Shown here: positions 5,498 through 63,965 of the stretch, in pieces
How the letters are laid out: each line of letters opens with the position of its first letter
How positions within the stretch are numbered: the first letter of the stretch is position 1
Assembly: GCA_963761615.1 (NCBI GenBank)
Contig: CAVXGU010000004.1
Coordinates: forward strand, 223,537-287,536
Direction of reading: 5' to 3'
DNA: 64,000 bases
Source: an uncultured Acidobacteriota bacterium
Lineage (GTDB): Bacteria; Acidobacteriota; Vicinamibacteria; Vicinamibacterales; CAVVIG01
Made by a program: the position numbers and the translations under genes
Notes under the pieces: generated by a model
What the model was told of the DNA's origin: nothing
Databases searched by the model: none
Seen by the model: the letters and a program-made list of their open reading frames with translations, nothing else

Positions 5498-5815
5498 CTA
5501 GATTCGAAGGACGGTCGGGGAAGACGCGCGGCGCGAGGGAGCGCCGCGTTCGGGAATCGGCGGCTCGACGAGGCTCAGGACAAACGCCTGCGGGGGCACT
5601 CGGCGTGGTGCCTCAATCCGCAGCCGTCTCGTGCCGGTCACGAAGGAGGGGACGGCCAGGGTCTTCGCGAGCGCGGGGGACTCGGCGATCGCGATGGCCG
5701 GTGCGACGGTGAGGTGCGCGTCCGGCGACCCGCCAGGGACGCTCGCGTGCGCCGACACCCCGACCGAGAGGAGGGCGAGCCCAACGACGCACCCGGTGCA
5801 CAGCCTGGCCAGCAT
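5498..5815 (-). CDS. hypothetical secreted protein
   Basis: Internal start MLARLCTGCVVGLALLSVGVSAHA looks like a signal peptide. No recognisable family. Support is weak. Confidence 0.3.
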   Translation of the reverse strand: MLARLCTGCVVGLALLSVGVSAHASVPGGSPDAHLTVAPAIAIAESPALAKTLAVPSFVTGTRRLRIEAPRRVPPQAFVLSLVEPPIPERGAPSRRASSPTVLRI

Positions 5816-5925
5816 TCGAAAAGGATCCCGATTAGGAGCATAGCAGAGGCCAAAGACATTCGGAGACAATTCTGAGTTTGCGCGGCCGTCACGAAGCTGC
5901 CGCGTCGACTTGACATGGCCGCCGC

Positions 5926-8480: not shown

Positions 8481-8728
8481 GGGACGCTCTCAGGCGCGAT
8501 CGTCGTTGTGCCGGAAGCGCTCGATGACGCTGACGCGTCGGCCGAGGTCGTCTCGAAGACGGGCGCACGCTCCTTTCGGACATGACGCGGACGGCCACGA
8601 CCGACGACGCGGCCGGCGCTGGTTCCGGCGCTACTGGACTTCGGCGTCGGCTCCGGCGCTCACGTCCTCGTGAACGGTCTGCTCGACGTCACGCGCGAGA
8701 TCGCCGAGGCGCAGGCGCCTCCAGCCTC

Positions 8729-11815: not shown

Positions 11816-11828
11816 GGTGGGGCCCCGT

Positions 11829-29824: not shown

Positions 29825-29826
29825 CC

Positions 29827-39900: not shown

Positions 39901-39902
39901 AT
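36897..39902 (-). CDS. dabA: DUF2309 (YbcC) family protein, DabA-type
   Basis: About 1001 aa. N-terminus GPISIFIHHNTLHAFEHLPFEEAV. Putative Zn-site motifs FCIDEREESFRRHLE and GHGS...NPHESAHDCGACGG, as in beta-CA-like DabA. The start is chosen at MPDHAGP (39902); an alternative at 39947 would lie inside the operator palindrome. Confidence 0.85.
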   Translation of the reverse strand: MPDHAGPQDAGPSDHPIARVIDRLAHRLPAQGPISIFIHHNTLHAFEHLPFEEAVADAAITLGREPFLAEGRYRDKLASGRILVEDVDALLEEALGPGGREDVAGVGTRFDLWRAVVLHGIPAATGRELQWILDETAALSRFRPDLPASARAALTDAIDPSELPGDERHAVRRLWRACLDAAGRARTPPPAAPGAAPVRHRDWLLATRRLDTDAWIHPPLIRFLAGYLDQGLAPWTMPDRHLGIHGCFLELYRTGLAAHCGRWAATLPRLVADDHAAGRGALDSLANSLADLGVAEDEADAYLGSELLALRGWAGIVRQIEERPDRVPTLDLTVTLRGYLAVRLLFERAALADAARQVSFHGPLAGLRPWLRDELPGPASPTPSDRAWPLFHLAQLCGVDASIVTQWTAGQVAEIESELGEVDALCRRTLHQAFERTIRHRVYDALAHHAPRPVDATPAFQAVFCIDEREESFRRHLEEVEPQCETFGAPGFFNVAMYHQGASDAHPRPLCPVTIRPEHYVAEVEEAPEALPGRSRRLHRRAAGFLGYNVHAGSRLPVRGALLMTLFGWLSLVPLVLRVVFPWLSSRWSVVRTPPLPAPRTRLQLSRDTRRPPIGSYSGFTVREMAGIVRRVLEDIGIAGRLSPLVLVFGHGSVSLNNPHESAHDCGACGGGRGGPNARAFAQMANDPRVRQALAAEGVAIGDGTWFVGAQRNTCDNTVTYYDDDLVPARWREAFARATRAVDTARRREAHERCRRFDAVPRWYPPAAALAHVQGRAADLAQPRPEYGHATNAFCIIGRRARTRGLFLDRRAFLSSYDPTRDGDGAVLARVMAAVVPVVAGINLEYYFSYVDPSGYGCGTKLPHNVTSLLGVMDGAQSDLRTGLPWQMVEIHEPTRLAIVVEGTPDRVGRVVGENATLDRLVRNRWIWLACLDPHSGALWELGPSGFVLRRPERPLTSVVGDSAAWYQGKRGFLAPVAIVPAPASNPTRTGAPPDSPARAR

Positions 39903-39917
39903 CGGCGAACGTGCAAG

Positions 39918-39935
39918 TATAGCAATATTGCTATA
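39918..39935. promoter_or_regulatory. perfect 18-bp palindrome TATAGCAATATTGCTATA in the dabA/arsR-like divergent intergenic region (candidate operator)
   Basis: The palindrome was checked by hand. It lies in a 51-bp AT-rich gap within an otherwise roughly 70% GC sequence, and TATACT/TATATT -10-like hexamers overlap it on both strands. Confidence 0.6.
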
Positions 39936-39953
39936 TTGCGCTATCATGCGGTC

Positions 39954-40349
39954 GTGTCGCGGGCGGCAGGGGCGGGCGGAGGGGCGGCCGGAGAGCTCCA
40001 GGTGTTCAAGGCGGGGTTCTTCCGCGCCCTCGCCCATCCCACCCGCATCCGAATCCTCGAGATCCTCGCGTCGGGCGGACGCACGGTGCAGGAGCTGCAG
40101 GACGCCTTGACGCTCGACCAGCCGCTCGTCTCCCAGCAGCTCGCCGTGCTGCGCAACCGCGGCATCGTCGCCGCGCAGAAAGAGGGGCCGTCGGTCCGAT
40201 ACGCCCTGCGGGACCCGCTGGTCGCCGACCTGCTGGACGTCGCGCGTCGCATCTTCAACAACCACCTGGTCAGCACGCGAGGGCTGTTGACCGAGCTGCG
40301 GCGCGAGGGCCGTCGGCGGCCGTCGCGGACACGACTCGCCCGCCGGTGA
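39954..40349 (+). CDS. ArsR/SmtB-family transcriptional regulator
   Basis: 131 aa from GTG 39954. Motif FKAGFFRALAHPTRIRILEILASGGRTVQELQDALTLDQPLVSQQLAVLRNRGIV. The protein contains no Cys. Confidence 0.85.
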   Translation: MSRAAGAGGGAAGELQVFKAGFFRALAHPTRIRILEILASGGRTVQELQDALTLDQPLVSQQLAVLRNRGIVAAQKEGPSVRYALRDPLVADLLDVARRIFNNHLVSTRGLLTELRREGRRRPSRTRLARR

Positions 40350-40554
40350 CGTGACCGGCACTTGACGCCCTGGGGACCGCGAGCGTATTCTGGCGGCCCT
40401 TCACGCCGGACCATCGGATATGGCGTCCACGTGGCGCTCGGGCGCCACAGCGGCGACTCGGCTTGCGGCCGCGGCCCCCTGGGGGCGCTCGAAGTCCAGG
40501 CGCGTCACCGTCCCACTCCTCGCACGACCCCAACCTGCACACAAGGAGCGCATC

Positions 40555-48381: not shown

Positions 48382-48633
48382 ATGGGGAAGCTGTTCGTGA
48401 TGTGGGTGCTGTCGCTCGCGCTGGTCGGAGCCCTGGCCGCCGCCGCGACCGCTCAGGTGACGGCGCCGGCGCCGGCGCAGCCGCATGTTCTCAGCGGAAA
48501 CGACATCGGCTTCAGGGTGGACGGCACCAATCGGCTCTCGGGCCGCCCGACGGGCCGGATCGTCGTCAGGCTGAACGGCCAGTGGGTCGAGCCTGCCGCC
48601 CCGGTGAAGGCGCGTCCGGCGGCTGACAGATAG
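48382..48633 (+). CDS. small secreted hypothetical protein
   Basis: 83 aa with signal peptide MGKLFVMWVLSLALVGALAAAATAQ. AAGGGGG lies upstream. Confidence 0.5.
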   Translation: MGKLFVMWVLSLALVGALAAAATAQVTAPAPAQPHVLSGNDIGFRVDGTNRLSGRPTGRIVVRLNGQWVEPAAPVKARPAADR

Positions 48634-48791: not shown

Positions 48792-49973
48792 TCATGGACG
48801 CCGTCGAGCGTCGGCCTCTCTCCGGATCGATTGCCGGTATCGCCGGTACCGCCACCATGCCTGCCGCAGTGCATGCGCCCGCCTGGCCCGGCCGGCGGCC
48901 GCGGCCCAGGTGGCCGGCCGGCTCGCGCGCCACCAGAGAGCCGTTGCGACGTACCGCAGGCGGCTCGACGACCTGTCGAGGAGCAGCAGCGTGGTGCCAG
49001 CTTTCGTCAGGAAGTCGAGATCGAACAGCCCTTCCGTCGAGCTGAAGAGACGGTGTCTCGCGAGGGCCTCGACCCGCCGAGCGCCGGCGTCGCGCGGCCC
49101 GCGCTCCAGGAAGAAGGGAGGGACCGGCACGTCCAGGGCACGCGTGAGCGCGCCGAGCGGCGCCCAGAACGCCCGAGGCGCCCCCATGGCAGCGCTCCAC
49201 GGCAGCAGACGCGACCAGTCGAAGGCTGGTTCGCCTCGGAGAACGGCGAGCAGATCCCACGCCGTCTTCAGTCCGAAGGAGAAGAACGACGCGGAGGCAT
49301 GCACCATCGAGTGAAAGAGCAACGCCTGCGGTCCGGGCACCCCGAAGTCATCCGACGTGGCGACGGGACGTACGTCCTCGAGCAGACTGGCCTCCGGCAG
49401 ACCCCAGAACGCCGGCATCATCCGCGTGTGGATCTCGATGGCGGCGCCGTGGAACGCGATCGGCTCCAGATGGTGCGGCGCGCTGGGGCCCGCGTTCTCC
49501 GGTCCCTCGAATCCGCGCGCGAGGAGTCGGCTCCGCAGGACCGGCGCCAGATCGGGCTCGACGAGAACGTCGACATCCGACGTCGCCCGCGCAACGGCGC
49601 GTGCGGGCGCGCGCATGAGGAACGCGGAACCCTTGAGCAGCACGCCGCGTCCCCCGAGCTCCCGCAGGGCCGAGCCGACCTGCGCAATCGCGTCTCTCTG
49701 CGCGCGTTCGCGCACGAGATCGAACATCGCTCGTCGCGACAGGGTGTCGAGAAACGTCTCCGGAACGGACCGCCTCAGCACCGGCGCATTGAGGATGCCG
49801 GCAAGCGGCCGCGCCAGACCGCTTCCGCACAGACACTCGCCGAGGCGCTCCCAGTCCTGCCCGGCGCGGTCGAACGCAATCGCGGCCTGGGAATCGATCT
49901 CGAGATCCGGGTCGGATGCGAGGCGAACGAACCACCGGCACGCCGCGATCCAGGCGGCGTCCTCCGCGTTCAC
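48792..49973 (-). CDS. uncharacterised nucleotidyltransferase family protein (PF14907-like)
   Basis: 393 aa. VLLKGSAF...SDVDVLVEPD pattern of the nucleotidyltransferase fold. ATGA overlap with the upstream GT2 gene. Confidence 0.7.
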   Translation of the reverse strand: MNAEDAAWIAACRWFVRLASDPDLEIDSQAAIAFDRAGQDWERLGECLCGSGLARPLAGILNAPVLRRSVPETFLDTLSRRAMFDLVRERAQRDAIAQVGSALRELGGRGVLLKGSAFLMRAPARAVARATSDVDVLVEPDLAPVLRSRLLARGFEGPENAGPSAPHHLEPIAFHGAAIEIHTRMMPAFWGLPEASLLEDVRPVATSDDFGVPGPQALLFHSMVHASASFFSFGLKTAWDLLAVLRGEPAFDWSRLLPWSAAMGAPRAFWAPLGALTRALDVPVPPFFLERGPRDAGARRVEALARHRLFSSTEGLFDLDFLTKAGTTLLLLDRSSSRLRYVATALWWRASRPATWAAAAGRARRAHALRQAWWRYRRYRQSIRREADARRRP

Positions 49974-51109
49974 GACCGCGCCTGCGAGAGGTCGTCGGCC
50001 TCTGCGTCCGCCGCGGCGGGCCGGCCCGCCCGCGCCAGCGCGAGACGTTGCTTGACGACGTGAGCCGGGTTTCCCGGGTCGAGCGCGCAGGCCCGTGCGT
50101 AGTAGCGGGCGCTCTCGTCGTAGCGCCGCAGTTTGAACAGGCAGAGCGCGACGGCTTCGCTGGCGGCGGCGCCGAAAATCCGGACGTCGTAGGCGACCCC
50201 GTCGTCCGAGCAGTACGTCTCGGCGTCCGTGTTCGCGAGATCTTCGAGAACGGCGAGCGCCTCGGCGTATCGTCCGGCGTCGAGCAACCGCCGCCCCTGG
50301 AGCCAGCGGAAGAGACAGTCGTCTGGAAACCGCTCCAGCGCCTCGTCGAGGAGCGCGGGGTCAGCGGGGTTCGATCCGACCAGCAGCGACCCGTAGGGCA
50401 GGGCGTCGAGCGGACTCCGCACCCGGGCGGCCCGCACGATGTCGGTCGCCCGCCGCCACGCCGCCGTCGCGCCCGCGTGGTCCCCCAGGCCTTCGAGCAC
50501 CTGTCCGAGGTGATTCCACGAATAGACGTGGCCTGGATCCTGCAACAGCCGCGCCCGGAGCAGGGGGGCGTTCCGCGCGTGCTTGCGTGCCTGATCCCCG
50601 TCGTACCCGTAGTGGTCGAGTGCGAGGTCGGACGCGCCGATGCGCGTTCCGTCCTCGCGCATCACGGCGTGGATGTCGGGGAGCATCGTTTCGTGGATGA
50701 CGTTTCGGAAGCGGATGCGCGCGTCGTTCCGGAACAGGCGGCACTCGCGGTACTGGGTGAAGCCGGTTCGACACCGGAACTTCACGGTCGCAGCGACGAG
50801 GGCGGAGTCGTCCAGCGTCGCCGCCAGCGCGTCCCGGCTCAGAGGCCGCGCGCGCTCGTCGGCATCGATGTAGAGAATCCAGTCGCCGCGTGCGTACGAC
50901 AGGGCGGCGTTTCTGGCGGCAGAGAAATCGCCGTGCCAGGCCTCGTGAACGACGCGCGCTCCGAACCGGGCGGCGATCTGCGGGCTCTCGTCCGTTGACC
51001 CTGTGTCGACGACGACGATCTCGTCGACGAGTCCGTCGAGCGAGGCGAGGCAAGAAGGCAGCGTCGACGCCTCGTCGCGGACGATGAGGGTCGCGGACAA
51101 AGCCGCCAA
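49970..51109 (-). CDS. GT2 glycosyltransferase with a TPR-like C-terminal domain
   Basis: 379 aa. LSATLIVRDEASTLPSCLASL...EIVVVDTGSTD, DxD (YIDADE), and a helical-repeat C-terminus. TTG start inferred. Confidence 0.85.
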   Translation of the reverse strand: MAALSATLIVRDEASTLPSCLASLDGLVDEIVVVDTGSTDESPQIAARFGARVVHEAWHGDFSAARNAALSYARGDWILYIDADERARPLSRDALAATLDDSALVAATVKFRCRTGFTQYRECRLFRNDARIRFRNVIHETMLPDIHAVMREDGTRIGASDLALDHYGYDGDQARKHARNAPLLRARLLQDPGHVYSWNHLGQVLEGLGDHAGATAAWRRATDIVRAARVRSPLDALPYGSLLVGSNPADPALLDEALERFPDDCLFRWLQGRRLLDAGRYAEALAVLEDLANTDAETYCSDDGVAYDVRIFGAAASEAVALCLFKLRRYDESARYYARACALDPGNPAHVVKQRLALARAGRPAAADAEADDLSQARS

Positions 51110-51121
51110 CGACGTGGGGGG

Positions 51122-51322
51122 CTAGCCCGGGGAAGAAGGGAGTGTGATGTTGGACGCGGCCTGTGCGTGCACGTTGTACGCGGACACGCCCTTCATCGAG
51201 AAGGACATGACCAGCGGAGCCCCGAACGCCGTTCCGGCGACGAGCGCCTTCAGGAACGCGCGCTTGTTCGGGTCGACATGTTCCAGGGCTTTGTCGAGAC
51301 CGTCCTTGTCACTGGTCGCCAT
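51122..51322 (-). CDS. 66-aa small protein, candidate substrate/precursor peptide of the cluster
   Basis: ATG at 51320..51322 is preceded by GGGGGAG at 6 nt. GC3 is high throughout. Sequence: MATSDKDGLDKALEHVDPNKRAFLKALVAGTAFGAPLVMSFSMKGVSAYNVHAQAASNITLPSSPG. It starts 14 nt inside the end of the kinase gene and ends 12 nt before the GT2 gene. Confidence 0.5.
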   Translation of the reverse strand: MATSDKDGLDKALEHVDPNKRAFLKALVAGTAFGAPLVMSFSMKGVSAYNVHAQAASNITLPSSPG

Positions 51323-52188
51323 GTTCGCTCCCCCGCTGAAGCCGATTGCCGAGGACACATTCACGCACACAAGCGACAGCGGAGTCAAGGTCCCCGACGG
51401 TGATTTCGTACGCGGTGGCATGCCCGACGAGGGTTCCGACGTCACGAGCCCAGGCCCCGTGGCCCGCGTCCGGCGGCGCCGACTGCGCCAGCACGCGCTG
51501 AAGGGTCAGGGGTGTTGGGCACGGCTGGACGCGCGTCGGCCCGCGATGGTGCGGAATCAGGCAGAGGACCACGTCGACCGAACCGGGGGTGATTCGCCAC
51601 CGGAGGTCGAGCTCGGCAGGGTCGAATGCAAGCACGTGAAATCCCCCCGGCCAATCGGCCTCCGGTCCCTCCAACAGACGAGGCGCGAGCGCACCCACCT
51701 GCGGCACCAGTCGCAGCGTGCGGCGGCGGAATCCCGAATCGCCGGGGGTAGGCCACGGCCTCGCCGTCGCGCAGGAGGACCATCTCGTCGCCTTCGACGC
51801 CGCAGCCCTCGAAGAGCAGTCGCGTCATCAGCGTCGTCTTGCCCGCGCCCCGGTCGCCCACGACGAGGAACCGGCGGCCGTGCCACGTCCCGCAGCCCGC
51901 GTGAACCTTGGTGTAATCGGCGAGCGCATCGAGCGCGAGCTCGTGCAGCCGGCGGTTGACGAAGTCGACGGCCTGATCGACGTCGGGGAAGATCTCGGGC
52001 GCGCAGCCGTCTTCGCTCACCCGCCACCGGTCGCCGCCGCCGAGCGCGTGGAACGAGTGCCGGCGCGTCACCGGATGATCCTGTACCGCGCTCGGCATCA
52101 GCCGATCCAGACGCTCGACGAACGACGCGTCGTCCGTCGATACGAGGAACCCGCACGCCACGAGCTGGATCGAGCGCTCGAGTGTCAT
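51309..52188 (-). pseudogene. HPr-kinase-related protein (P-loop intact), apparent 1-nt frame disruption near 51728
   Basis: The N-terminal 153 aa (frame of 52188) contains GDRGAGKTTLMTRLL and ends ...AVAYPRRFGI. The continuation RRRTLRLVPQVGALAPRLLEG...VDVVLCLIPHH... is in the frame of ORF 51309..51707 and parallels the paralogue at 56176..57057. Confidence 0.75.
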
Positions 52189-52209
52189 CGGTTGGAGGCG
52201 CCTGGACCA

Positions 52210-52479
52210 TCAGAGCGGACGGATGAGACCCTCGTCGCGGAGTTTGGTGAGGCAGCTCTCGACTTCGTCGGTCGGTGCCGTGGTGAGGTCGTACGCGTTC
52301 TTCAGGGCGTCCACGATCGCGCCGGCGGCCAGGTGGCCGTCGCACATTTCGAACACCAGGACCGCGGTGCGATTGAGGTAGTGGACGCGGTCGGTCTCCT
52401 GTTGATAGACGATGTAACCGTCCGGCAGGTCGTTGACCTCGAGCCCGTCGGCTCTCTTCGGCACCCAGTTCCAGTCCAT
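52210..52479 (-). CDS. PqqD-family protein (RRE-like peptide chaperone)
   Basis: 89 aa. DGYIVYQQETDRVHYLNRTAVLVFEMCDG......IVDAL...YD......EVESCLTKLRDEGLI matches the PqqD pattern. ATG verified at 52477..52479. Confidence 0.8.
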   Translation of the reverse strand: MDWNWVPKRADGLEVNDLPDGYIVYQQETDRVHYLNRTAVLVFEMCDGHLAAGAIVDALKNAYDLTTAPTDEVESCLTKLRDEGLIRPL

Positions 52480-52513
52480 CGTGCGCTCCGGTCGCTGATT
52501 GTGGAATCGGTGG

Positions 52514-53824
52514 TCACACCAAGTCAACGGGGGGACCGGGCCGTTGCGGAGCTCCGCGCAGGTGTTCACGCACCAGGGCCGCCACCCGTCCGGCCACGAC
52601 GGAGGCGTCGTACGCCGAAGCCACCAGCGCAGCCGCCTCCCGCTGGATGCGCCGCGCGAGATCCGGCTCGCGCACGATCCGACAGCACGCGTCGGCGATC
52701 TCCGCGGGCCCCTCCGCCATCAGGAGATGCCGTCCCGCGACCACGTCGAGGCCTTCGGCGCCGAGAGACGTGGAAACCACCGGCACGCCACTGGCGAAGG
52801 CCTCGAGGATCTTGAGGCGTGTGCCGCCGCCCGCACGAAGGGGCACAACGGCGGCGTGGGCGCGCCGGTAGAACGGCGCCACGTCCTCGACGTCGGGGTG
52901 GACGGCGACGCCGTCGAGCCGGCCGAGCTCGAGCACGGTCGGGTCGGGCCGGGCGCCGATCAGGTCCACGTACGCGGCGGTGCCGAGACGCGCCCGAACG
53001 GCGGGAAGGATTTCTCGGCAGAGAGTGGTCGCCGCGTCGACGTTCGGGAAGTAGCCGAGCGAGCCGACGAAGACCAGGTGGACGCACCCGTCGGGTGTCC
53101 CCCCGAGGGCGCGGGCATCACGGGACACGCGAACGCCGTTCGGAACGACGTGCACCGACGGGTGACCCGAACGCGCCGCGACCGCCTCCCGGTCGCGCGC
53201 CGAACAGGTGAAGAGCGTATCGAACGACGACACCCACCTCGACTCGAGGATCCGGTACTTGTCGGCCTCCGCGGCCTCTGCGTCCGACGCGGCGATGTGC
53301 CCGAGCTCCGCGTGCCGCGCGGCGAGACGCCGCCGCGTCGAGACTTCGTCGTCGTCCAGATCGAGCAGGGCCAGGCGCGGAGAGGAGCAGGCCGCGACGA
53401 ACGGGGCGAGGTACAGCCGCATGACGAGCACGACGTCGAACGCCGGTCGGTCGGCGAACAGGTGCCGCGCCTCCTCGACATGGTCGCCGGCCGCCCGCGC
53501 GAGCGCCGGCAACAGGAACAGCTCTCGCAGAGTCCGAGAGTCTTCCCTGGGCGCGTCAGCGCCCGCCCGCGGATCGCCTCGGCCCGGTCTCGGCGGGAGG
53601 CACATCCGCTCGACGGTGCGGTCGACCAGGGCACGCGGCCACTGGTCCGGTGCCGGTCCGGACACCGGAACGACCATCAGCGTGACATCGCACTCCTGCG
53701 CCAGCGCCTCGAGGAGCACCGCGGAGCGCATGGCCAGCCCGTTGCCGGAATCGGCCGGTGTCGTGGGCGCAACGAAGAGGGCGCGGGGGCGTCGGCTCGA
53801 TCCCGCGGTCACGGCGTCGATCAT
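52514..53824 (-). CDS. GT-B glycosyltransferase (GT4-like)
   Basis: 436 aa. C-terminal half has GGTRLKILEAFASGVPVVST..GAEGL, the EX7E-region pattern. It abuts the upstream gene with no gap. Confidence 0.85.
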   Translation of the reverse strand: MIDAVTAGSSRRPRALFVAPTTPADSGNGLAMRSAVLLEALAQECDVTLMVVPVSGPAPDQWPRALVDRTVERMCLPPRPGRGDPRAGADAPREDSRTLRELFLLPALARAAGDHVEEARHLFADRPAFDVVLVMRLYLAPFVAACSSPRLALLDLDDDEVSTRRRLAARHAELGHIAASDAEAAEADKYRILESRWVSSFDTLFTCSARDREAVAARSGHPSVHVVPNGVRVSRDARALGGTPDGCVHLVFVGSLGYFPNVDAATTLCREILPAVRARLGTAAYVDLIGARPDPTVLELGRLDGVAVHPDVEDVAPFYRRAHAAVVPLRAGGGTRLKILEAFASGVPVVSTSLGAEGLDVVAGRHLLMAEGPAEIADACCRIVREPDLARRIQREAAALVASAYDASVVAGRVAALVREHLRGAPQRPGPPVDLV

Positions 53825-54586
53825 TCAGTCTTCCGCGTGACGGATCTCGAGATTGGGGAGACCCCAGCACTGATAGCCCATGTCATGGGCCATGATGCCG
53901 AGCCCTTCGGTATCCAGCTCTCCCACGACTTCGGTGACCCACGGGTTGGGATCGCGCACCAGGGGGCTGCGCCCGCCGTAGAGGTACGGCGGGAAGATCA
54001 GGCCGTCCCGGTGCGCGTCCGCGCGCACCAGCAGCATCGTGCCGCCGACCGCGTCCAGTCGTACGAGGTCGGGGCCTCCCCGCAGGTCCTCCATGTGGAC
54101 GCGGCCGTGGTCCCGCCACGCGTTCAGATCGAACGTCGGGCCGCCATACGTCCGCACACAGTGGGGATGGACGATGTCGCGCCCGACCGACAGCAGGCGC
54201 TCGATGATGCCTGGCGGGTACTCGACGACATCCGCGTCCAGCCAGAGCACCCAGTCCTCGTCGTCGAGGGCTCGCGAGAGCAGATGGTTCCGGCTCCTCG
54301 AGATCACCGCGCGGCGCGGAATCTGGATGATGGACGCCCAGCGCGGCAGGCCTCGCGGGATCTGAAAGCCGAAGTCGCGCTTCCAGAGGCGCGCCCGCCG
54401 GTACCGGCGCTGCAGGTCGGGCATTCGCGACTGCAGGGCGGCAAACGTGTCGTCCTGGCTGTCGCCCTCGAGAAAGCCGAGGGACAGACGGTCCGGCGGA
54501 TACGTCAGCCGCGCGAGCGAGTCGAAGTACGTGTCGAGACGCCTGGCGGCGTCCTTGATCACCGTGAGGACGACTACCGTATCCAT
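53825..54586 (-). CDS. GT-A glycosyltransferase resembling the fungal Mnn9/Anp1/Van1 (GT62) family
   Basis: 253 aa. VLTVIKDAARRLDTYFDSLARLTYPPDRLSLGFLEGDSQDDT...RR...SRSRNHLL...L.DEDWVLWLDADVVEYPPGII...DIV.P...FDLNAW parallels the Mnn9/Anp1 core as I recall it. No TM segment. Confidence 0.65.
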   Translation of the reverse strand: MDTVVVLTVIKDAARRLDTYFDSLARLTYPPDRLSLGFLEGDSQDDTFAALQSRMPDLQRRYRRARLWKRDFGFQIPRGLPRWASIIQIPRRAVISRSRNHLLSRALDDEDWVLWLDADVVEYPPGIIERLLSVGRDIVHPHCVRTYGGPTFDLNAWRDHGRVHMEDLRGGPDLVRLDAVGGTMLLVRADAHRDGLIFPPYLYGGRSPLVRDPNPWVTEVVGELDTEGLGIMAHDMGYQCWGLPNLEIRHAED

Positions 54587-54658
54587 GGAGAGGCCTCGAT
54601 CGTCGGCGGGCTATTGTAGCGGCGCGCGAGCCCGCCCTGTGCGAAGATCCCGCGCATC

Positions 54659-56167
54659 GTGACGCTGCCGTCGCTGACCCAGGCACTCGCCGATCGTCTT
54701 CGGTCGCCCCGGCCCTACCCCGCCGAGCGATACACGGGGCGGGGCGTCGTCACCTGCGCCGGGGGGAGCCGCTACTTCACGTGCGCCTGGGTGCTCATCT
54801 GGGTCCTGCGGCGCGTCCTGCACTCGAGTCTGCCGATTCAGGTCTGGCACGCCGGCCGGAGCGAAATGAGCGAGGGCATGCAGCTCATCCTGGAAGAGGA
54901 GGGCGTGGAAGTCGTCGACGCGGACATCGTCGTCGCCGATCGGCCCGGGCGCGTCTGTGGGGGGTGGCCGCTCAAGCCGTACGCCATCGCGCAAAGCCGG
55001 TTCCGCGAGGTGCTCTTTCTCGACGCCGACGCCGTCCCGCTGGCCGATCCGGAGGCGGCGTTCGAATGGGAGGCCTATCGCCGCGGCGGACTTCTGCTGT
55101 GGCCCGACGTCCTCGACATCACGAGGGAGAATCCCGTGTGGAGCGCGCTTGGCCTCGAGGCGGCCGACACGATCAGCGCGGAGTCGAGCGTTCTCGCGAT
55201 CGACAAGGCCAGGGCGTGGGACGTGCTCGACGTCGCCGTCCTGCTCAACGAACACTGGGAGGAGCTCTACGAGCTGATCTATGGCGACAAGGACTCGTAT
55301 CTCCTGGCGGGGCGCCTGCTCGGGCGCCCCGTCGCGCTCGTCGCGTCACGGCCATTTCAGCTCGGCGATGATCTCGTCCAGCGCGACGAGCGCGGCGAGC
55401 CCTTCGTCCACCACCGCACGGGGTCGAAGTGGAATCTCTCCGGCGCCAATCAGCCGGTTGCCGATCCCGAGATCGACGCGGCGTGTCAGGTGGCCCTCGC
55501 GGAGCTCCGGCGCCGGTGGACGGGCGCCGTGTTCCATGCTCCCGCCCGCTCGGCGACCGCACGGGCGGTGGAGCGCGAGCTGATCGACGCCAGACGCTTC
55601 CAGTACTCGGTCTCCGGTCAGGCCCGAACCCTGGAGCTGCTGTCGGGGGGGCGCATCGGCGAAGGCCGGGGCCCCTGCGAACAGCACTGGGCCGTCGTCG
55701 GCGATCGCGAGCCTGCGCTCCAGCTGTTCTCGGACGTCCGCCTCACCGTCGGGCTGAGGCCCGATCCCGACGGGACGTGGCGCGGCGGCTCGGTGTGCGG
55801 GGATCCGTTCGACGCCAGGCTCGTCGCGGCGAGCGCGCCGACGACGTGGCCGCCGGAGCCGCGCGCGCGGAGTGCCGCGGATCACGTCGCGCCGCTTCTG
55901 GATCCGAGCCTGTTCGCGACCGGCTTCGACCCGGCCCTCGCGAGCGAGATTCGCGGGACGCTCACGCTGCTGAACCGCGTGTTCGACGATGTGGCGGAGG
56001 CGGTGGCGGGCTGGCTGCAGGCGCACCCGCCTGCGGAGCCCTGGCGGCGCGAGGTCGAAGCCATGCTGCCGCCGCTCGTGGAGGCCCGGCGGACGCGGCT
56101 CGTGCGGACGGGCGGCAGCGCGGGATCCACCGCGCTGGACTCGGTGCGCTACCGGAGGAACTCCTAG
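54659..56167 (+). CDS. GT-A glycosyltransferase resembling the Mnn1/Mnt (GT71, Mannosyl_trans3) family, with a roughly 230-aa uncharacterised C-terminal extension
   Basis: GTG start. GVVTCAGGSRYFTCAWVLIWVLRRV..SSLPIQVWHAG..E...WPLKPYAI..S.F.EVLFLDADAVPL.DPE..F....Y...G.LLWPD parallels the Mnn1-family core as I recall it. No TM segment. Confidence 0.6.
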   Translation: MTLPSLTQALADRLRSPRPYPAERYTGRGVVTCAGGSRYFTCAWVLIWVLRRVLHSSLPIQVWHAGRSEMSEGMQLILEEEGVEVVDADIVVADRPGRVCGGWPLKPYAIAQSRFREVLFLDADAVPLADPEAAFEWEAYRRGGLLLWPDVLDITRENPVWSALGLEAADTISAESSVLAIDKARAWDVLDVAVLLNEHWEELYELIYGDKDSYLLAGRLLGRPVALVASRPFQLGDDLVQRDERGEPFVHHRTGSKWNLSGANQPVADPEIDAACQVALAELRRRWTGAVFHAPARSATARAVERELIDARRFQYSVSGQARTLELLSGGRIGEGRGPCEQHWAVVGDREPALQLFSDVRLTVGLRPDPDGTWRGGSVCGDPFDARLVAASAPTTWPPEPRARSAADHVAPLLDPSLFATGFDPALASEIRGTLTLLNRVFDDVAEAVAGWLQAHPPAEPWRREVEAMLPPLVEARRTRLVRTGGSAGSTALDSVRYRRNS

Positions 56168-56175
56168 CAGGGCAG

Positions 56176-57057
56176 ATGCCGTACGAAGTGCTCGCCCGCA
56201 GCTCCTGCCGGCGGATCGTCTTCACGACGGGCGACCCGGCCGTCTGGTCCGCGGTGCGATACCTGGAATGTGACCCGGAGGTGGAGGCCCGCGGTCCGGT
56301 CGGCCTGGTGCGCGTCGGACTGGACCGCCACCGTGGCCGCCATCGCATCGCGCAGCCCGATCGCGAGCCTCGCGAGGAGCTGACGCTCCGCGAGGTCGTT
56401 CGGTATCTGGACGGCCGGCTGTTCGAGCAGGCGATGGAGGATTACCCCGGGGCGCCGGTGATCCGCGCGGCCTGCCTGCGCCGCCAGGGGCGCCGGATGC
56501 TGCTCCTCGGTCCCAACCGTGTCGGCACGACCGCGCTGGTGCTGCGCCTCATGCTGGCGGGGGCCGCGGTCGAGGGCGACGCGCACGTGTTCGCGCTCGC
56601 CGGCGGGGTGATTGCGCGACCGCGCGGTCTTCGGGTGAACGCCGGGGACGTTCCGCGCGTGCCCGAGATCGCCAGGGAGGTGCTGTCTGCGCCGTTCCAC
56701 GAAGACGGGCGCGGCGGACGGGCCTACAACCTGGATCCGCGGACCCTCGGGCGGCCATGGGAGATCCGGCACGGACCGGTGGATGTCGTCGTCCTGCTGA
56801 GGAGCAACCTTGGCGGCAGGTCGTCGATCCGTCCGATCGGACCGACGACCGTCGTTCGCGAGGCGATGTCCGCGTGCGTCATGCCGCGCGCCGGCCGCGG
56901 CGCCGCCGTGAGCGCGCTCGTCGCCGCCCTTCGGTCGGCGCGGGGCTTCGACCTCTCGTACGGCGACGACGAGGGTGCGCGCCGTTGCATCGAGGCGGCG
57001 TGCGACGGTCTGTTGGCCGCAACGGCGAGCCGCTATTTCCCCGTCAGCTCCCGGTAG
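56176..57057 (+). CDS. HPr-kinase-related protein paralogue with a degenerate P-loop
   Basis: 293 aa and collinear with the protein at 51309..52188. The P-loop position reads GPNRVGTTAL, with no Lys. ATG verified at 56176. Confidence 0.7.
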   Translation: MPYEVLARSSCRRIVFTTGDPAVWSAVRYLECDPEVEARGPVGLVRVGLDRHRGRHRIAQPDREPREELTLREVVRYLDGRLFEQAMEDYPGAPVIRAACLRRQGRRMLLLGPNRVGTTALVLRLMLAGAAVEGDAHVFALAGGVIARPRGLRVNAGDVPRVPEIAREVLSAPFHEDGRGGRAYNLDPRTLGRPWEIRHGPVDVVVLLRSNLGGRSSIRPIGPTTVVREAMSACVMPRAGRGAAVSALVAALRSARGFDLSYGDDEGARRCIEAACDGLLAATASRYFPVSSR

Positions 57058-58060: not shown

Positions 58061-60559
58061 GTGTGGATCATCGCGTGGTTCGAACGGCTCTGGCAGGACG
58101 TCCGCTACGGCAGCCGCGTCCTGGCGCGGAGCCCGGGATTCACCCTGGTGGCGATGCTGTCGCTCGCCACGGGCATCGGCGCCAACGTCGCCGCCTTCAG
58201 CTGGGCCGATGCCCTCCTGCTTCGCCCGCTGCCCGTGGCCCGGCCGAACGAGATCGTCACCGTCGGGGACACGGTCTCGGTGGAAGGCTTCACCAGCCTC
58301 GCCGCGTCGTACCGCGAGTACGAGGATCTGCGCGATCGCGCGAAGAGCTTCGAGGGGCTGACCGCCTCGAGCGGCATCACGGCGGGCGTCGCGACGGATC
58401 CGGCCGCGCTGCCGAAGCTGAAGCTCGGCCTGCTCGTCAGCGGCAACTTCTTTTCCCTGATGGGCGTCCAGCCGATGCTCGGCCGCGCGTTCAGGGCGGA
58501 GGAAGACCAGGTGCCCGACCGTGACGCGGTCGTCGTGCTGGGCTATGACTTCTGGCAGCGCGAGCTCGGCGGCGATCCCGCCGTGCTGGGGCGCCGCATT
58601 CGATTGAACGGCATCCCCTTCACGGTCATCGGCATCGTCCCGGCGAGCTTCACCGGCATCAATCAGTTCGTCCGCAACGACTTCTACGCCCCGATCATGA
58701 TGTGGCCCGCGCTGTCGGGGAATCCCAAGGTGCACCCGCTCGAGGATCGGAGCCTGCAGGAGGTGACGATCAAGGGACGCCTCGCGCCGGGGGTCGGCCT
58801 GACGCAGGCGCAGGCGGAACTGTCGGCGATCGGCGCCGATCTGGCGCGCGAGTACCCGCAGACGAACGAGAACCGCGTCCTCGCCGTGCGCACGGAGCTG
58901 CAGAGCCGGGTCGCCCAGTCACCGCCCGACGCGATGCTCATCGTGATGCTGAGCACGCTGGCGCTGGCCGTGCTGTTCGTCGCCTGTGCGAACGTGGCGG
59001 GACTGCTCACGAGCCGCGCGCCCGCGCGTGCCAGAGAAATCGCGCTCCGCCTGGCGATCGGCGCGGGACGCGTGCGGCTGGTGCGCCAGCTGATCACCGA
59101 GAGCCTCCTGATTGCCGTCGGCGGGGGCGTCCTGGGCGTCGCCGTCGGGTACGCGGGGGTCCGCGTGTTTCAGCACATCCAGATCCCGTCGGACCTGCCC
59201 GTGTCGCTCGACTTTCAGCTCGACCGGCGCGCGCTCGTGTTCAGCCTGATCGTCGCCGCCGCGAGCGCGTTGCTCTTCGGCCTCGTCCCTGCGCTGCAGA
59301 CGACGCGGCTCGATCTCAACACGGCGATGAAGACCGGCGACGCGGACATGGGCGGCTCGCAGCGCCGCCTCGGCCGGCGCCTCCTCGTGGGCGCGCAGGT
59401 GGCCGTGTCGGTGATCCTGCTGGTGGTGGCCACCTTCATGTATCGCAGCTTCATCCGGCAGGTGGGATCGGGACCCGGCTACCGCACGGATCACGTGCTG
59501 ATGATGGGGCTCGACACGAGCCTCGTTCACTACTCCGACGTGGACAGCCGGGTGTTCTTCGAGCGCCTGGGCGACAGGGCGCGCGAGGTGCCGGGCGTCC
59601 GGTTGGCCGCGCTGTCCTCGACGGTCCCGATGTCGACCGACAGCGTCGGTTCGACGTCCATCGTGCCGGAGGGACACCAGCTGCCGACGGGGCAGGACAG
59701 CATCGGCGTGCTCGACGCCATCGTCGACGAGCGGTACTTCGACGTGATGGACATTCCGATCGTCGAGGGGCGCGCGTTTACCGAGCGGGATCGCGACGGC
59801 ACGCCGCTCGTGGCCGTCGTGAACGAGAGCCTGGCGCGGAAGTACTGGCCCGACGCCAGCGCGCTCGGCAAGCGGTTCCAGCTGGCCGCCGCGCCGGGAC
59901 GTCCCTGGGTGCAGATCGTCGGCGTCGCGAAGGAGAGCAAGTACATCTGGCTGGCCGAGCCGCCCACCGACTTCGTGTACATGCCGTACCAACAGCACCC
60001 GCGATCGAACATGACCCTGCTGGCGCAGTCGATCGGCGACGATCCCGCCGCGCTGGCCGCGCCACTGCGCGACGTGGTGCGGGACCTGGATCGGAACCAG
60101 CCAATCTTCAACGTGCGCACGATGAGCGAGTTCTACCGCATGCGGGCGGTCAGCATCTTCGACATCGTCATCGGCACTGTCGCCGCCATGGGGCTGATGG
60201 GGCTGGGCCTCGCGATCGTCGGCATCTACGGCCTCATGTCCTATGCGGTGATGCGGCGGACGCGCGAGATCGGGATCCGAATGGCAATCGGCGCCGATCG
60301 CGGGGCGGTGCTGCGCATGGTGCTCGGGCAGGGCGCGACGCTCGCGGGCGCGGGCCTGGCCCTCGGTCTGGTCGGCGCCATCGGCGCCGGACGGGTGCTG
60401 CGCGCGATGTTTCCGGGCGGGGCGACCCGGCCCGGCACGGACCTGGTCGGTCTCGCGATCGTGGGCGTTGTGGTGCTGGCGATCACGCTGCTGGCCGCGT
60501 ACGTGCCCGCGCGCCGCGCGTCCCGCGTCGACCCGATCACGGCCCTGCGCTACGAGTAG
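58061..60559 (+). CDS. ADOP-family duplicated ABC-type (FtsX/MacB-like) permease
   Basis: 832 aa. N-terminus WQDVRYGSRVLARSPGFTLVAMLSLATGIGAN. Two FtsX-type 4-TM modules. C-terminal pattern PARRASRVDPITALRYE. Confidence 0.9.
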   Translation: MWIIAWFERLWQDVRYGSRVLARSPGFTLVAMLSLATGIGANVAAFSWADALLLRPLPVARPNEIVTVGDTVSVEGFTSLAASYREYEDLRDRAKSFEGLTASSGITAGVATDPAALPKLKLGLLVSGNFFSLMGVQPMLGRAFRAEEDQVPDRDAVVVLGYDFWQRELGGDPAVLGRRIRLNGIPFTVIGIVPASFTGINQFVRNDFYAPIMMWPALSGNPKVHPLEDRSLQEVTIKGRLAPGVGLTQAQAELSAIGADLAREYPQTNENRVLAVRTELQSRVAQSPPDAMLIVMLSTLALAVLFVACANVAGLLTSRAPARAREIALRLAIGAGRVRLVRQLITESLLIAVGGGVLGVAVGYAGVRVFQHIQIPSDLPVSLDFQLDRRALVFSLIVAAASALLFGLVPALQTTRLDLNTAMKTGDADMGGSQRRLGRRLLVGAQVAVSVILLVVATFMYRSFIRQVGSGPGYRTDHVLMMGLDTSLVHYSDVDSRVFFERLGDRAREVPGVRLAALSSTVPMSTDSVGSTSIVPEGHQLPTGQDSIGVLDAIVDERYFDVMDIPIVEGRAFTERDRDGTPLVAVVNESLARKYWPDASALGKRFQLAAAPGRPWVQIVGVAKESKYIWLAEPPTDFVYMPYQQHPRSNMTLLAQSIGDDPAALAAPLRDVVRDLDRNQPIFNVRTMSEFYRMRAVSIFDIVIGTVAAMGLMGLGLAIVGIYGLMSYAVMRRTREIGIRMAIGADRGAVLRMVLGQGATLAGAGLALGLVGAIGAGRVLRAMFPGGATRPGTDLVGLAIVGVVVLAITLLAAYVPARRASRVDPITALRYE

Positions 60560-62300: not shown

Positions 62301-63965
62301 TCAACGCACGGTGGCGGCGATTTCGGCGGCGATGGACTCTTCGGTGTAGCCGGCCGACGGCCCGCGCTCTTCCCAGGAGGGGACGTCGAGGCTGTAGCGG
62401 TGCTCGGCGAGGGTCAGGCGGTTGCGCACGGCGAAGTCGTGCTGATCGAGCTGCATGACGATCGAGGTCATCGAGATCGCGCCGCGCTCCACGTAGGGCT
62501 TGAGGTCCTGCACGAAGCGCAGGCCTTCGAGGTCACCCTGCAGCTTCAGCGTCGCCGCGATCTTGTAGTAGAGCGCCATTTCGGCGACGCGGGACAGCCG
62601 CCGCCCTCCCGCCGCCGGGCGCCCCGCCGATCCGATGAGGCGCTTCTTGATCTGCTCGTAGCTCAGCACGCGATCGACGAGGTCGATGAAGCCCTGCTGC
62701 AGCTCGATCGGCCGCATCTTGGCCGGCACGAACACCGTGTGGTGCGCGTCGTACATGCGCGGCTTCACGGTGAGGAGCCGGCCTTCCATCAGGTAGCGCT
62801 TCCACTGCCGGCCGATGGGTGTGAGGATGTTGAAGTAGGGGAACAGGATGTTGTTGCGGTCGAAGAAGTCGAACGCGGCGTCGAAACAGTCCGTCGTCTC
62901 GGCGTCGGTGCCGAAGATGAAGCTGGCGATCGCCTCCATCCCGTACTCGCGAAGCCGGCCGATCGCCTCGTCGTAGTCGAACGCCACGTTGTGGAACTTC
63001 TTGTACGACCGGAGCACCTCGACGCTCGTGCTCTCGAGGCCGATGAAGATGTTGTAGAAGCCCGCCTCGCGCATCAGCTCGAGGGCTTCCTTGTCCTTCG
63101 AGACGTTGATCGTCAGCTGCGATCCGAACGAGGCGTGGAAGCCGGGGTAGCGCTTGTTGAGGGCGATGATCGCGCGGCAGATCGCCTTGAAGTGCGTGGG
63201 GTTGCCGAAGATGTTGTCGTCGACGAAGAAGATGGGACGGCGCGCGAAGCGGCCCACGAGGTCGTGGCGGTAGATCTGCTCGAGCTCCGCGACGATCGCC
63301 TCGGGCTTCTTGTAGCGCATCGTGTGGCCGAGCATCGCGACGATGGAGCAGAACTCGCAGTCGAAGGGGCAGCCCCGGCTCGCCTGCAGGGTGAGCGACA
63401 CGTAGCGCATCCACCGCCGCCGGTTCGGCTTGGGCAGGTGCATGATCTCCGACATGTCGGTCTTGGCCGTCTGCTCGTAAACCGGCTTCAGCGTGCCGTC
63501 CCGGGCGTCGGCGAGCATGTCGGCCCACACGTGCTCGGCTTCCGACACGCAGATGGCATCGGCGTGGTTCAGCGCGTGGTCGCTCACCATGTACGGGTAG
63601 TACCCGCCCATGACCACCTTGACGCCGCGGGCCCGGAACAGATCCGCGATCTGGCAGGCCCGCGTCGCGTTGGTCACCATCACCGTCAGCGCGACCAGGT
63701 CGTAGTCGCCCTCGAAATCGATCGTGTCGAGGTTCTCGTTGACGACGGTGAGGTCGACCCAGTCCGGCGTGAGCGCGGCGAGCGTCTCGAGGCCGTTGAA
63801 GGCGAGCCCGTAGGATCGGACCCGGAACGGCCAGACGAGCAACTGGTGCACCCGCTCCTGGCTGAACTGGGTGCGTACGCGCGAGTCCGCGTCCCGGCAG
63901 GGATAGACGAGGAGGACGCGAAGAGTCTTCGACCCGCGTGGCTTCAAGCATCGGGATCGTAGCAC
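62301..63965 (-). CDS. B12-binding domain-containing radical SAM protein
   Basis: 554 aa. N-terminal Rossmann-like B12-binding region (VALTVMV, VVMGG), then the radical SAM motif SRGCPFDCEFC. GTG start near the window end. Confidence 0.85.
   Translation of the reverse strand: MLRSRCLKPRGSKTLRVLLVYPCRDADSRVRTQFSQERVHQLLVWPFRVRSYGLAFNGLETLAALTPDWVDLTVVNENLDTIDFEGDYDLVALTVMVTNATRACQIADLFRARGVKVVMGGYYPYMVSDHALNHADAICVSEAEHVWADMLADARDGTLKPVYEQTAKTDMSEIMHLPKPNRRRWMRYVSLTLQASRGCPFDCEFCSIVAMLGHTMRYKKPEAIVAELEQIYRHDLVGRFARRPIFFVDDNIFGNPTHFKAICRAIIALNKRYPGFHASFGSQLTINVSKDKEALELMREAGFYNIFIGLESTSVEVLRSYKKFHNVAFDYDEAIGRLREYGMEAIASFIFGTDAETTDCFDAAFDFFDRNNILFPYFNILTPIGRQWKRYLMEGRLLTVKPRMYDAHHTVFVPAKMRPIELQQGFIDLVDRVLSYEQIKKRLIGSAGRPAAGGRRLSRVAEMALYYKIAATLKLQGDLEGLRFVQDLKPYVERGAISMTSIVMQLDQHDFAVRNRLTLAEHRYSLDVPSWEERGPSAGYTEESIAAEIAATVR

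Follow-up and report, generated by a model that had tools for sequence, protein, structure and literature searches.

A divergent nine-gene cluster in an uncultured Acidobacteriota bacterium as a candidate pathway for phospho- and/or glyco-peptides

What could a bacterium make with two HprK-related proteins, a PqqD-like protein, a nucleotidyltransferase-fold protein and four glycosyltransferases (GTs) packed around a single small open reading frame (ORF)? This question is raised by a locus of an uncultured Acidobacteriota bacterium of the Vicinamibacterales. The window analyzed here is a stretch of 64,000 nucleotides (nt) from its genome (assembly GCA_963761615.1, contig CAVXGU010000004.1, positions 223,537 to 287,536), with a G+C content of ~70%. 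At 48792-57057 it contains nine genes in two divergent operons, an arrangement put forward in a first-pass annotation of the same DNA and upheld by a frame plot of G+C at third codon positions (GC3), by ORF lists and by profile searches. The minus-strand operon encodes an Anp1-like GT, a GT4 protein, the PqqD-like protein, a kinase (kinA), the small ORF, a GT2 protein with a C-terminal TPR region (GT2-TPR) and a PF14907 protein; the plus-strand operon encodes a Mannosyl_trans3-like GT and a second protein (kinB) of the fold shared by HprK and phosphoenolpyruvate carboxykinase (PEPCK). The cluster is likely to be a pathway resembling those of ribosomally made peptides with post-translational modifications (RiPPs), turning the 66-aa product of the small ORF into a short phospho- and/or glyco-peptide. 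It belongs to a large, apparently undescribed sister family of the phospho-lasso systems and of the linear polyphosphorylated peptide (LPP) systems of Bacillota.

The small ORF (51122-51322, minus strand; 66 aa) is the candidate precursor gene. It carries a GC3 coding signal, has a Shine-Dalgarno-like GGGGGAG 6 nt upstream of its ATG, and is annotated in the deposited genome (P0097). Residues 1-53 of its product form the leader, which contains the segments KRAFLK, FGAPLV and SFSMKG and ends with VHA, and the predicted core is QAASNITLPSSPG. A word-indexed search recovered 639 homologues, and an exhaustive search (E<=1e-3) at least 765 cluster representatives at 50% identity; the family matches no Pfam or NCBIfam model. 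Its members share an acidic N-terminus followed by [SAT]-[KR]-R-x-[TF]-L-[KR]-[KR], and F-x-x-P-x-V starts 12 residues past the leader arginine and is itself followed by S-F-S-M-D-G-L, with R21, F33, P36 and V38 being invariant leader residues. FxxPxV was found in 119 of 120 precursors and is predicted to belong to the class of motifs bound by RiPP recognition elements (RREs) of the lasso type. The leader end is of the AxA type (VHA in 54, AQA in 54, also AHA), after which comes a Q in 76 of 119, whereas the core (median length 12 aa) is hypervariable and rich in G, S, N, A, P and T. Compared with an 85%-identical orthologue, the leader of the window peptide has 8 synonymous and 5 non-synonymous differing codons and its core 2 and 5, respectively, a codon comparison that indicates purifying selection on the leader and divergence of the core. 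Precursor genes often occur in tandem, three or four in locus L007 and seven in locus L008 of Phreatobacter aquaticus, where all seven products (10975-12681; 60-61 aa) end with AQA followed by Q(V/A)ANGSG. The gene-level features of a RiPP locus are present, namely a gene-encoded precursor, a conserved leader, a variable core, and an adjoining RRE with tailoring enzymes.

Two kinds of longer family members bear on where the core ends and what the leader can direct. On the one hand, 35 of 119 precursors run on directly from the core into a Peptidase_S74 domain, whose first residues are SDRRLK; examples are L003 10976-11419, L010 5299-5814, P0104 and P0147, with cores of 10-14 aa. Peptidase_S74 is the self-cleaving intramolecular chaperone domain (endosialidase chaperone) of phage tailspikes, and here it would free the C-terminus of the core, so that the core end is marked independently. 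The NCBI name of these fused precursors, "tail fiber domain-containing protein", is probably misleading here. On the other hand, the exhaustive search returned members of 170-285 aa with the same leader (P0311, P0313, P0336 and P0364), in which N-x-[ST] lies just past AxA and an apparent folded domain follows, suggesting that the leader-directed system may also act on full-size proteins.

The cores are variable in sequence and share one statistical property. In 138 cores of representatives at <=50% identity, N-x-[ST] occurs 113 times, compared with 47.9 +/- 5.8 in shuffled cores (maximum 68 in 1000 shuffles), and the control motifs [ST]xN, QxS/T, DxS/T and GxS/T are at expectation. A closer set of precursors contains 145 N-x-[ST] where 33.5 are expected. 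The window core has one such sequon (NIT) and its relative has NTT, and the cores of the L006/L007 subclade carry Y-S-G in place of the sequon.

Homologues of the kinase led to 13 further loci (L001, L003-L013 and the partial L014), originating from metagenome-assembled genomes (MAGs) that bear the label Bradyrhizobium or Alphaproteobacteria, the completely sequenced Phreatobacter aquaticus (CP039865.1), a Vicinamibacterales MAG, a Methylomirabilis MAG and metagenome contigs, one of them with 48% G+C. They span at least four phyla or classes, and the Vicinamibacterales MAG provides the nearest locus from a named organism. The first-pass annotation had suggested a neighbourhood survey, and in these 13 loci the PqqD, kinase and nucleotidyltransferase genes are always accompanied by GT2-TPR and a conserved small ORF, often together with GT4, Anp1 and GT71. 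All loci of sufficient length contain the five-gene core of PqqD, kinase, small ORF, GT2-TPR and PF14907. Of the neighbours, the small ORF is conserved best across the loci; the leader hidden Markov model (HMM) finds one copy in the window and one or more in every related locus, and the GT2-TPR gene adjoins the small ORF in all of them. By contrast, the accessory genes vary and include GT4, Anp1, GT71, GT10, a GT32-like gene, an epimerase-GT2 fusion, methyltransferases and a sulfotransferase. Neither Anp1 nor GT71 occurs in L009 and L011, the minimal loci, which are reduced to little more than the five-gene core. From this distribution the window cluster looks like a hybrid of an acidobacterial-type core operon, including kinA, with an Anp1/GT71/kinB module as in alphaproteobacterial loci.

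No dedicated leader peptidase (S24/S26) was found in the window cluster, its flanks or the 13 related loci, and ABC exporters adjoin the cluster only in L011. In that locus, the region at 4393-8809, directly upstream of the minimal cluster, contains tatC and two MsbA-like ABC exporter genes, with tatC ~4.5 kb upstream of the five-gene core. More distant HprK-like homologues occur in L017 (3571-9054) and L018 (6497-9478), which are MAGs or metagenome contigs, together with PqqD, ORFs of 32-37 aa and Peptidase_S24 in an LPP/lasso-like layout. L018 has four or five of these ORFs in tandem, and L017 also has PF14907 and an Asn-synthase. Because these distant homologues carry Peptidase_S24, the window family is taken as a separate branch, which, judging from gene content, would have lost or never had a dedicated peptidase and always carries GT2-TPR.

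The proteins encoded around the precursor gene were assigned by profile searches, and the earlier assignments of PqqD, PF14907, GT2/TPR, GT4, Anp1 and Mannosyl_trans3 all agree with them. All cluster enzymes lack a membrane segment according to hydropathy. The PqqD-like protein (52210-52479, minus strand) is 89 aa long when read from an internal ATG that agrees with its orthologues, 12 of which were taken into the alignment. It matches PF05402 with 38 bits, above the cutoff, whereas TIGR04353 (30.9 bits against a cutoff of 35) and TIGR03859 (29.9 bits) score lower. The lasso RRE TfuB1 is its nearest neighbour among solved structures (E=0.005), and for 12 of 13 members of the RRE family TIGR04353 is, jointly with PqqD proper, the best-matching named family. 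The PF14907 (NTP_transf_5) nucleotidyltransferase-fold protein (48792-49973, minus strand; 393 aa; Pfam 85 bits) has an orthologue in 12 of the 12 related loci that extend far enough, and its KG...DxD motif (K114, G115, D133 and D135) is invariant in 14 orthologues; it is a candidate for adding sugar to a phosphorylated peptide.

The GT2-TPR protein (49970-51109, minus strand; 379 aa) combines a GT2 catalytic domain (Glycos_transf_2, 73 bits) with a C-terminal TPR region (TPR_2, 40 bits). Its best NCBIfam match is the SunS peptide S-glycosyltransferase family TIGR04195 (60 bits against a cutoff of 350), and its sequence matches in the PDB are GmaR (2.3e-25), SunS (3.5e-13) and 7msk (8e-13), all of which points to it as the candidate peptide-priming glycosyltransferase. 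The GT4 protein (52514-53824, minus strand; 436 aa; Glyco_trans_1_4, 77 bits), whose nearest NCBIfam is TIGR03087 (130 bits, below cutoff), has orthologues in most related loci. The Anp1-like (GT62) protein (53825-54586, minus strand; 253 aa; PF03452, 156 bits) reaches a maximum hydropathy over 19 residues on the Kyte-Doolittle scale (KD19) of 0.76 and has orthologues in L001-L005, L007, L008 and L012. The Mannosyl_trans3 (GT71)-like protein (54659-56167, plus strand; 502 aa; PF11051, 89 bits) has orthologues at 41-84% identity in L001-L005, L007 and L008, and its C-terminal ~300 aa contain no known domain. The GT62 and GT71 families are otherwise known mainly from the yeast Golgi.

The genes lie close together, in line with the tight junctions reported earlier. 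In the minus-strand operon they range from a 14-nt overlap (kinA and small ORF) to a 34-nt gap (GT4 to PqqD), with a 0-nt junction between Anp1 and GT4, gaps of 21 nt from PqqD to kinA and 12 nt from the small ORF to GT2-TPR, and a 4-nt overlap of the GT2-TPR and PF14907 genes; in the other operon, GT71 and kinB are 8 nt apart. No sigma-70-like promoter was found in the 72-nt divergent region between the operons (54587-54658), and a sigma-70 scan is uninformative for such an organism.

The two HprK-related genes require a more detailed reading. The kinB product (56176-57057, plus strand; 293 aa) was modelled with AlphaFold2 on 91 homologues (pLDDT 95), and Foldseek matched the model to PEPCK (8.5e-9) and to HprK/P (1kkm; 5.7e-5), two enzymes that share a fold. 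Searched singly in Pfam and NCBIfam, it matches no kinase family at E<=0.01, and its sole match up to E 0.1 is the FomB kinase (E=0.02). In single scans of ten members of the kinase family, eight match TIGR04352 (best E 4.9e-12) and eight match TIGR04355 (5e-8), all below the curated cutoffs, and kinA itself matches both families weakly; some homologues carry Pfam ScmC (PF27840) or Hpr_kinase_C. A sequence search of the PDB with the kinase profile gave only generic P-loop matches, with HprK at E=0.14, and a scan of metagenome contigs matched only two, of ~1.3 kb each. The HPrK relationship claimed earlier for both genes is therefore borne out by family profiles and by fold, and not by kinB when searched alone.

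Furthermore, kinA (52188 to 51309, minus strand) is not the clean 248-aa ORF that it had been taken for. Its frame is broken by one extra T at 51731/51732 (GGGATTCCGC in the window, GGGA-TCCGC in an orthologue), and the deposited annotation (P0083) is an out-of-frame ORF of 248 aa. In three-frame translation the reading continues in the +1 frame after ...AYPRRFGI, and the halves before and after the frameshift both align to kinB. Once repaired, kinA encodes 292 aa, with an intact Walker A (GDRGAGKTT), and aligns without gaps to the intact orthologue P0020 at 82% identity; L009 and P0022 provide further intact orthologues. Over 880 nt aligned with the L014 orthologue (85% nt identity), no indel other than the extra T occurs, and the alignment with L009 has a gap at the same position. 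Since the frame stays open past the insertion at this level of identity, with no second lesion, the change is either very recent or a sequencing error, and kinA in the window genome is accordingly either broken or mis-assembled as judged from these alignments. A programmed frameshift was considered and rejected because there is no slippery/stop context, the 0 frame runs ~90 codons further, and the orthologues are unshifted. The Anp1 orthologue of L001 (1533-2304) is likewise split by a frameshift into 180 aa and 79 aa, and single-base errors do occur in such assemblies.

The lesion of kinB is of another kind. Its Walker A reads GPNRVGTT and has lost the lysine, although 92 of 96 members of the kinase family carry GxxxxGK[ST]; among close relatives, the lysine is missing only in kinB and in P0002, which is 75% identical to it. 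The organism that carries P0002 also has an intact kinA, and in metagenome 3300082281 a close relative combines an intact kinA with the same degenerate kinB. Judging from these motifs, kinB is probably non-catalytic, and the window lineage probably carries a predicted catalytic kinase together with a non-catalytic paralogue. In Phreatobacter aquaticus (L008 6723-7556; CP039865.1), a second kinase-like gene beside PqqD has the Walker A GDQRCGRTT, with K changed to R, and at the sequence level this pair echoes the catalytic and degenerate pair of the window.

Taking as observed the gene content, synteny, precursor anatomy, kinase fold and motif statistics, we infer the chemical steps, the modified residue, the sugar and the export route as follows. 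By homology with the lasso and LPP systems, the PqqD-type RRE would bind the leader through F-x-x-P-x-V and present the core to the enzymes. The HprK-like kinase would then phosphorylate a Ser/Thr near the core start, for which the conserved S-N and N-x-S/T are candidates. PF14907 and GT2-TPR could attach the first sugar or sugars, either on the phosphate or directly on the side chain, and GT4, GT62 (Anp1-like) and GT71 (Mnn1-like) could extend the glycan. Judged from eukaryotic and bacterial relatives of these GTs, the glycan is probably mannose-rich, and the mannosyl-phosphate chemistry suggested in the first-pass annotation is hypothetical. Export and leader removal may proceed via the housekeeping twin-arginine translocation (Tat) or Sec system and signal peptidase I; this general export machinery is proposed because no locus has a peptidase, only L011 has an exporter, and the leader is of the n-h-c type and ends with AxA followed by Q.

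Several observations weigh against this proposal. The family as a whole is defined by sequence comparison, and every chemical step is deduced from homology. The window kinase scores only 17.5 and 19.4 bits against a curated cutoff of 200, the kinase and PqqD NCBIfam scores fall below the curated cutoffs of every named family, and the relationship of the window GT2-TPR to SunS and GmaR spans the GT2 catalytic domain only. At the precursor level, the leader has F where the characterized RRE motifs have Y/W, 118 of the 120 precursors closely related to the window peptide have KR in place of the twin arginine, and none of 18 precursors matches the Pfam TAT_signal model at E<=10. The enrichment of N-x-S/T is compatible alike with N-glycosylation, O-glycosylation and S/T phosphorylation. 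In the window genome, moreover, kinA is frameshifted and kinB has lost its P-loop lysine, which suggests that the phosphorylation step may be defective here unless the extra T is an assembly error.

The last point can be carried further, so that the cluster of this genome would be a decaying remnant making no phosphorylated product, with the dependent later steps failing. The inserted T is present in the deposited genome, where the gene is annotated as the 248-aa ORF, kinB lacks the catalytic lysine, and the other long ORFs of the window are intact, implying that the assembly is not generally error-ridden. Nevertheless, the frame past the insertion is fully open and shows no second lesion when compared with the 82%-identical orthologue, none of the other eight genes is disrupted and all keep a strong coding signal, and the relative in metagenome 3300082281 keeps an intact kinA beside the same degenerate kinB; decay is hence considered rather doubtful. 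A different objection is that the locus could be an ordinary surface-polysaccharide or glycolipid locus, in which the four GTs would build a glycan on a lipid carrier, sugars would be regulated or activated by the kinase, PqqD and the nucleotidyltransferase, and the small ORF would be a bystander. It has four GTs in a row, the nearest NCBIfam of its GT4 is a PEP-CTERM/XrtA-system glycosyltransferase (below cutoff), and LPP and lasso clusters of Bacilli lie inside capsule loci (PMC13381572). However, an initiating phosphoglycosyl transferase is absent from the cluster and its flanks, as are Wzx, Wzy, Wzz and any ABC exporter for polysaccharide; the related clusters showed none of these either, and no polysaccharide export genes were found among the remaining window genes scanned. 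The small ORF is the best-conserved neighbour, is tandemly multiplied and carries an RRE-type motif, and L009 and L011 retain the five-gene core without Anp1 and GT71. An exopolysaccharide locus is thus rejected as highly improbable. With this, the three observations that the first-pass annotation had named as telling against a phospho/glycopeptide (triads that never travel with the GTs or a conserved small ORF, profiles unsupportive of PqqD and HPrK, and polysaccharide export genes nearby) were all looked for and none refuted it; the grouping of genes goes far beyond chance and the claim is supported, and its phosphorylation part may not operate in the window genome.

The purpose of the leader is where another explanation departs from the RiPP-like one, with which it otherwise overlaps. 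The small protein could be a Tat or Sec pre-protein that is glycosylated and exported, PqqD acting as a proofreading chaperone of the signal peptide until glycosylation is done, after which signal peptidase I would cut. Such a role has a parallel in the redox enzyme maturation proteins (REMPs), chaperones that hold Tat cofactor enzymes in the cytoplasm for proofreading, and Tat tolerates bulky cargo. The leader consensus [SAT]-[KR]-R-x-[FT]-L-[KR]-[KR], 12 residues ahead of the hydrophobic FxxPxV stretch, is Tat-like; among 146 representatives, RR was counted in 57, KR in 80 and a strict RR pattern in 47. An uncharged stretch of at least 13 residues occurs in 148 of 148 leaders, the h-region of the window peptide is moderately hydrophobic (KD19 1.55), and the AxA boundary followed by Q resembles a signal-peptidase site. 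The same explanation would accommodate a leader peptidase in 0 of 13 loci, exporters adjoining only L011, tatC near the L011 core, and the members of 170-285 aa with a folded domain after the same leader. On the contrary, the window peptide itself has the KR form (N-K-R-A-F-L-K), as do nearly all its close relatives, and it has no NCBIfam match at E<=0.01; the TAT_signal model is silent, the leader c-region of ~10-12 aa is longer than usual, and FxxPxV is of the class bound by RREs in cytoplasmic RiPP pathways. A canonical Tat signal was therefore not taken as established for the window peptide, given the KR and the missing HMM match, and export as the leader's main purpose seems unlikely, if tenable.

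Both ideas can also be combined in a speculative scheme for the family, to which we give a low probability: glycosylation would take place in the cytoplasm, be directed by the sequon and be coupled to Tat export. PqqD would bind FxxPxV in the h-region and keep the mini-protein in the cytoplasm; GT2-TPR, aided by the kinase and PF14907, would glycosylate N-x-S/T just past the signal-peptidase site, and the yeast-type GT62 and GT71 would extend a mannan-like chain. The cargo would leave by Tat and be released by signal peptidase I, with S74 self-cleavage at the other end in one third of the precursors, to give a glycopeptide of 8-14 residues. If true, this would be a new bacterial route to N- or O-linked glycopeptides and the first RRE acting as an export-proofreading chaperone.

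The surroundings of the cluster are unrelated to it, the flanking genes encoding an esterase/beta-lactamase-family protein, YidB, a metallo-beta-lactamase hydrolase, an ADOP permease, DUF4159, DedA and a B12 radical SAM protein. Between the beta-lactamase-family gene and the cluster lies an 83-aa ORF (48382-48633, plus strand) with a strong coding signal and no family match, which has a classical hydrophobic signal peptide (MGKLFVMWVLSLALVGALAAAATAQ; KD19 2.37). An ORF of the same length adjoins PF14907 in Phreatobacter (L008 15079-15330) and looks unrelated in sequence. The ADOP-family duplicated permease (58061-60559, plus strand) matches TIGR03434 with 838 bits, above the cutoff; this permease family is typical of Acidobacteriota. 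At the right edge of the window, the B12-binding radical SAM protein (62301-63965, minus strand) shows a weak similarity, far below cutoff, to PhpK-type P-methyltransferases. Farther from the cluster are a resistance-nodulation-division (RND) efflux operon of AcrB-like, HlyD-like and OEP genes (8729-14276, minus strand) and a PMT_2 (GT-C, ArnT-like) glycosyltransferase (19731-21278, minus strand), counterparts of which were not seen near any related locus. Other genes of the window encode a 1074-aa AAA_16/LuxR-type regulator followed by a ferredoxin-adenylate/guanylate cyclase fusion (26600-30561, plus strand) and a DabA (1154 aa; PF10070, 755 bits) and Proton_antipo_M pair (34128-40361, minus strand), arranged as in a DAB-type inorganic-carbon pump.

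Characterization of the kinase-RRE-PF14907 trio is recent and confined to Bacillota, where its final product is still unknown. Here, a sister family in Acidobacteriota, Alphaproteobacteria and Methylomirabilota ties the trio to a peptide-type GT2. Its precursors yield testable predictions in the form of an RRE motif, a signal-peptidase-like boundary, a sequon-bearing core of 8-14 residues and an S74 domain in one third, and the cultured Phreatobacter aquaticus, with its seven tandem precursor genes, makes the question experimentally accessible. If confirmed, the product would mean that bacteria of abundant soil phyla secrete glycopeptides of a new class, and it could also give PF14907 and the GT62 and GT71 enzymes of bacteria a function.

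Among known systems, several resemble parts of the window cluster. In Tat signal peptides, as in the precursor family, a basic motif, a mildly hydrophobic stretch, basic c-region residues and AxA occur together, and, as a parallel to REMP chaperones such as TorD and DmsD, the precursor family has a gene alongside for a small cytoplasmic protein predicted to bind the peptide; they differ in that KR prevails in the precursors, the Tat HMMs are silent and PqqD is unrelated to REMPs. The soluble HMW1C-like N-glycosyltransferases (GT41) are comparable in that the window family, too, is a cytoplasmic system, its substrates being specifically enriched in N-x-S/T, whereas the window cluster has no GT41 and its candidates are GT2, GT4, GT62 and GT71. 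The GT2 domain is closest to the side-chain-glycosylating enzymes of glycocins (sublancin SunA/SunS and thurandacin ThuS) and to Listeria GmaR. The window precursor is nevertheless unrelated to those of glycocins, its leader ends with AxA rather than double-glycine, and neither a SunT-type peptidase-ABC exporter nor the disulfide-forming (thiol-disulfide oxidoreductase) enzymes of glycocin type were found in the cluster and flanks. Glycocin clusters are not known to include an RRE, a kinase or PF14907. The HPr-rel-A system (TIGR04352, HprK-related kinase A; TIGR04353, PqqD chaperone; TIGR04355, HprK-related kinase B), defined by comparative genomics and of unknown function, provides the best-matching named families for window-type kinases and RRE, with all scores below cutoff (~17-50 bits for the kinases, where 200 are required, and 30.9 for the RRE, where 35 are required).

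The paeninodin and pseudomycoidin lasso systems share with the window cluster an HprK-like kinase, PF14907 and a PqqD/B1-type RRE. In pseudomycoidin, the PF14907 protein PsmN is needed for adding one or two hexoses to the phosphate of phosphoserine (PMC6993621). As had already been noted, the window cluster differs by the absence of a lasso cyclase and B2 protease: neither an Asn_synthase cyclase nor a B2/transglutaminase-like protease was found among the window genes scanned, so a lasso peptide cluster was rejected and the product would be linear. Twelve of the 13 related loci are also without an Asn-synthetase-like cyclase or B2 protease, and L013 has an Asn_synthase gene ~5 kb off.

The earlier statement that no characterized example is known has to be revised, because the LPPs of Bacillota, to which they are reported to be confined, are a characterized relative with a kinase, RRE and PF14907 and without a cyclase (Popov et al., Nat Commun 2026; PMC13381572). 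In the LPP and lasso systems, HprK-like kinases phosphorylate a Ser of RRE-bound precursors, the lasso-type motif bound being [Y/W]xxPx[LVIAFY], and in LPP, Ser3 of the core AQSNWK receives several phosphates from the kinase; the study did not settle what PF14907 does in LPP (PMC13381572). In LPP precursors, the YxxPxV... leader is conserved and the C-terminus varies (PMC13381572). The window family agrees with them in its discrete PqqD-type RRE, HprK-like kinase, PF14907 and linear precursor without a lasso cyclase, in an aromatic-xx-P-x-V located ~16-21 residues before the cleavage site and followed by a variable C-terminus, in a Ser beside Asn near the core start (AQSN in LppA; QxxSN or QxANGS in the window family), and in the glycosyltransferases that surround the clusters. 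On the other side, the SipW-like (archaeal-type) signal peptidase I, which is the leader peptidase of LPP, and the MsbA-type exporter of LPP have no counterpart in the window cluster, and no MsbA-like ABC exporter was found in or adjoining it. Only the aromatic-xx-P-x-V part of the LPP motif YxxPxVLxHQxIxFETxxS is shared, SFSMDGL...AxA coming next in a leader of ~53 aa that is Tat-signal-like and has F for Y. The kinase and RRE are remote in sequence, the hosts belong to Gram-negative or diderm phyla, and a GmaR/SunS-like GT2-TPR is invariant. No publication on this Gram-negative family was found in literature searches. Combined with the above analysis, the family is best read, by analogy, as the Gram-negative counterpart of the LPP and phospho-glycosylated lasso systems of Bacillota, built around a GmaR/SunS-like glycosyltransferase.

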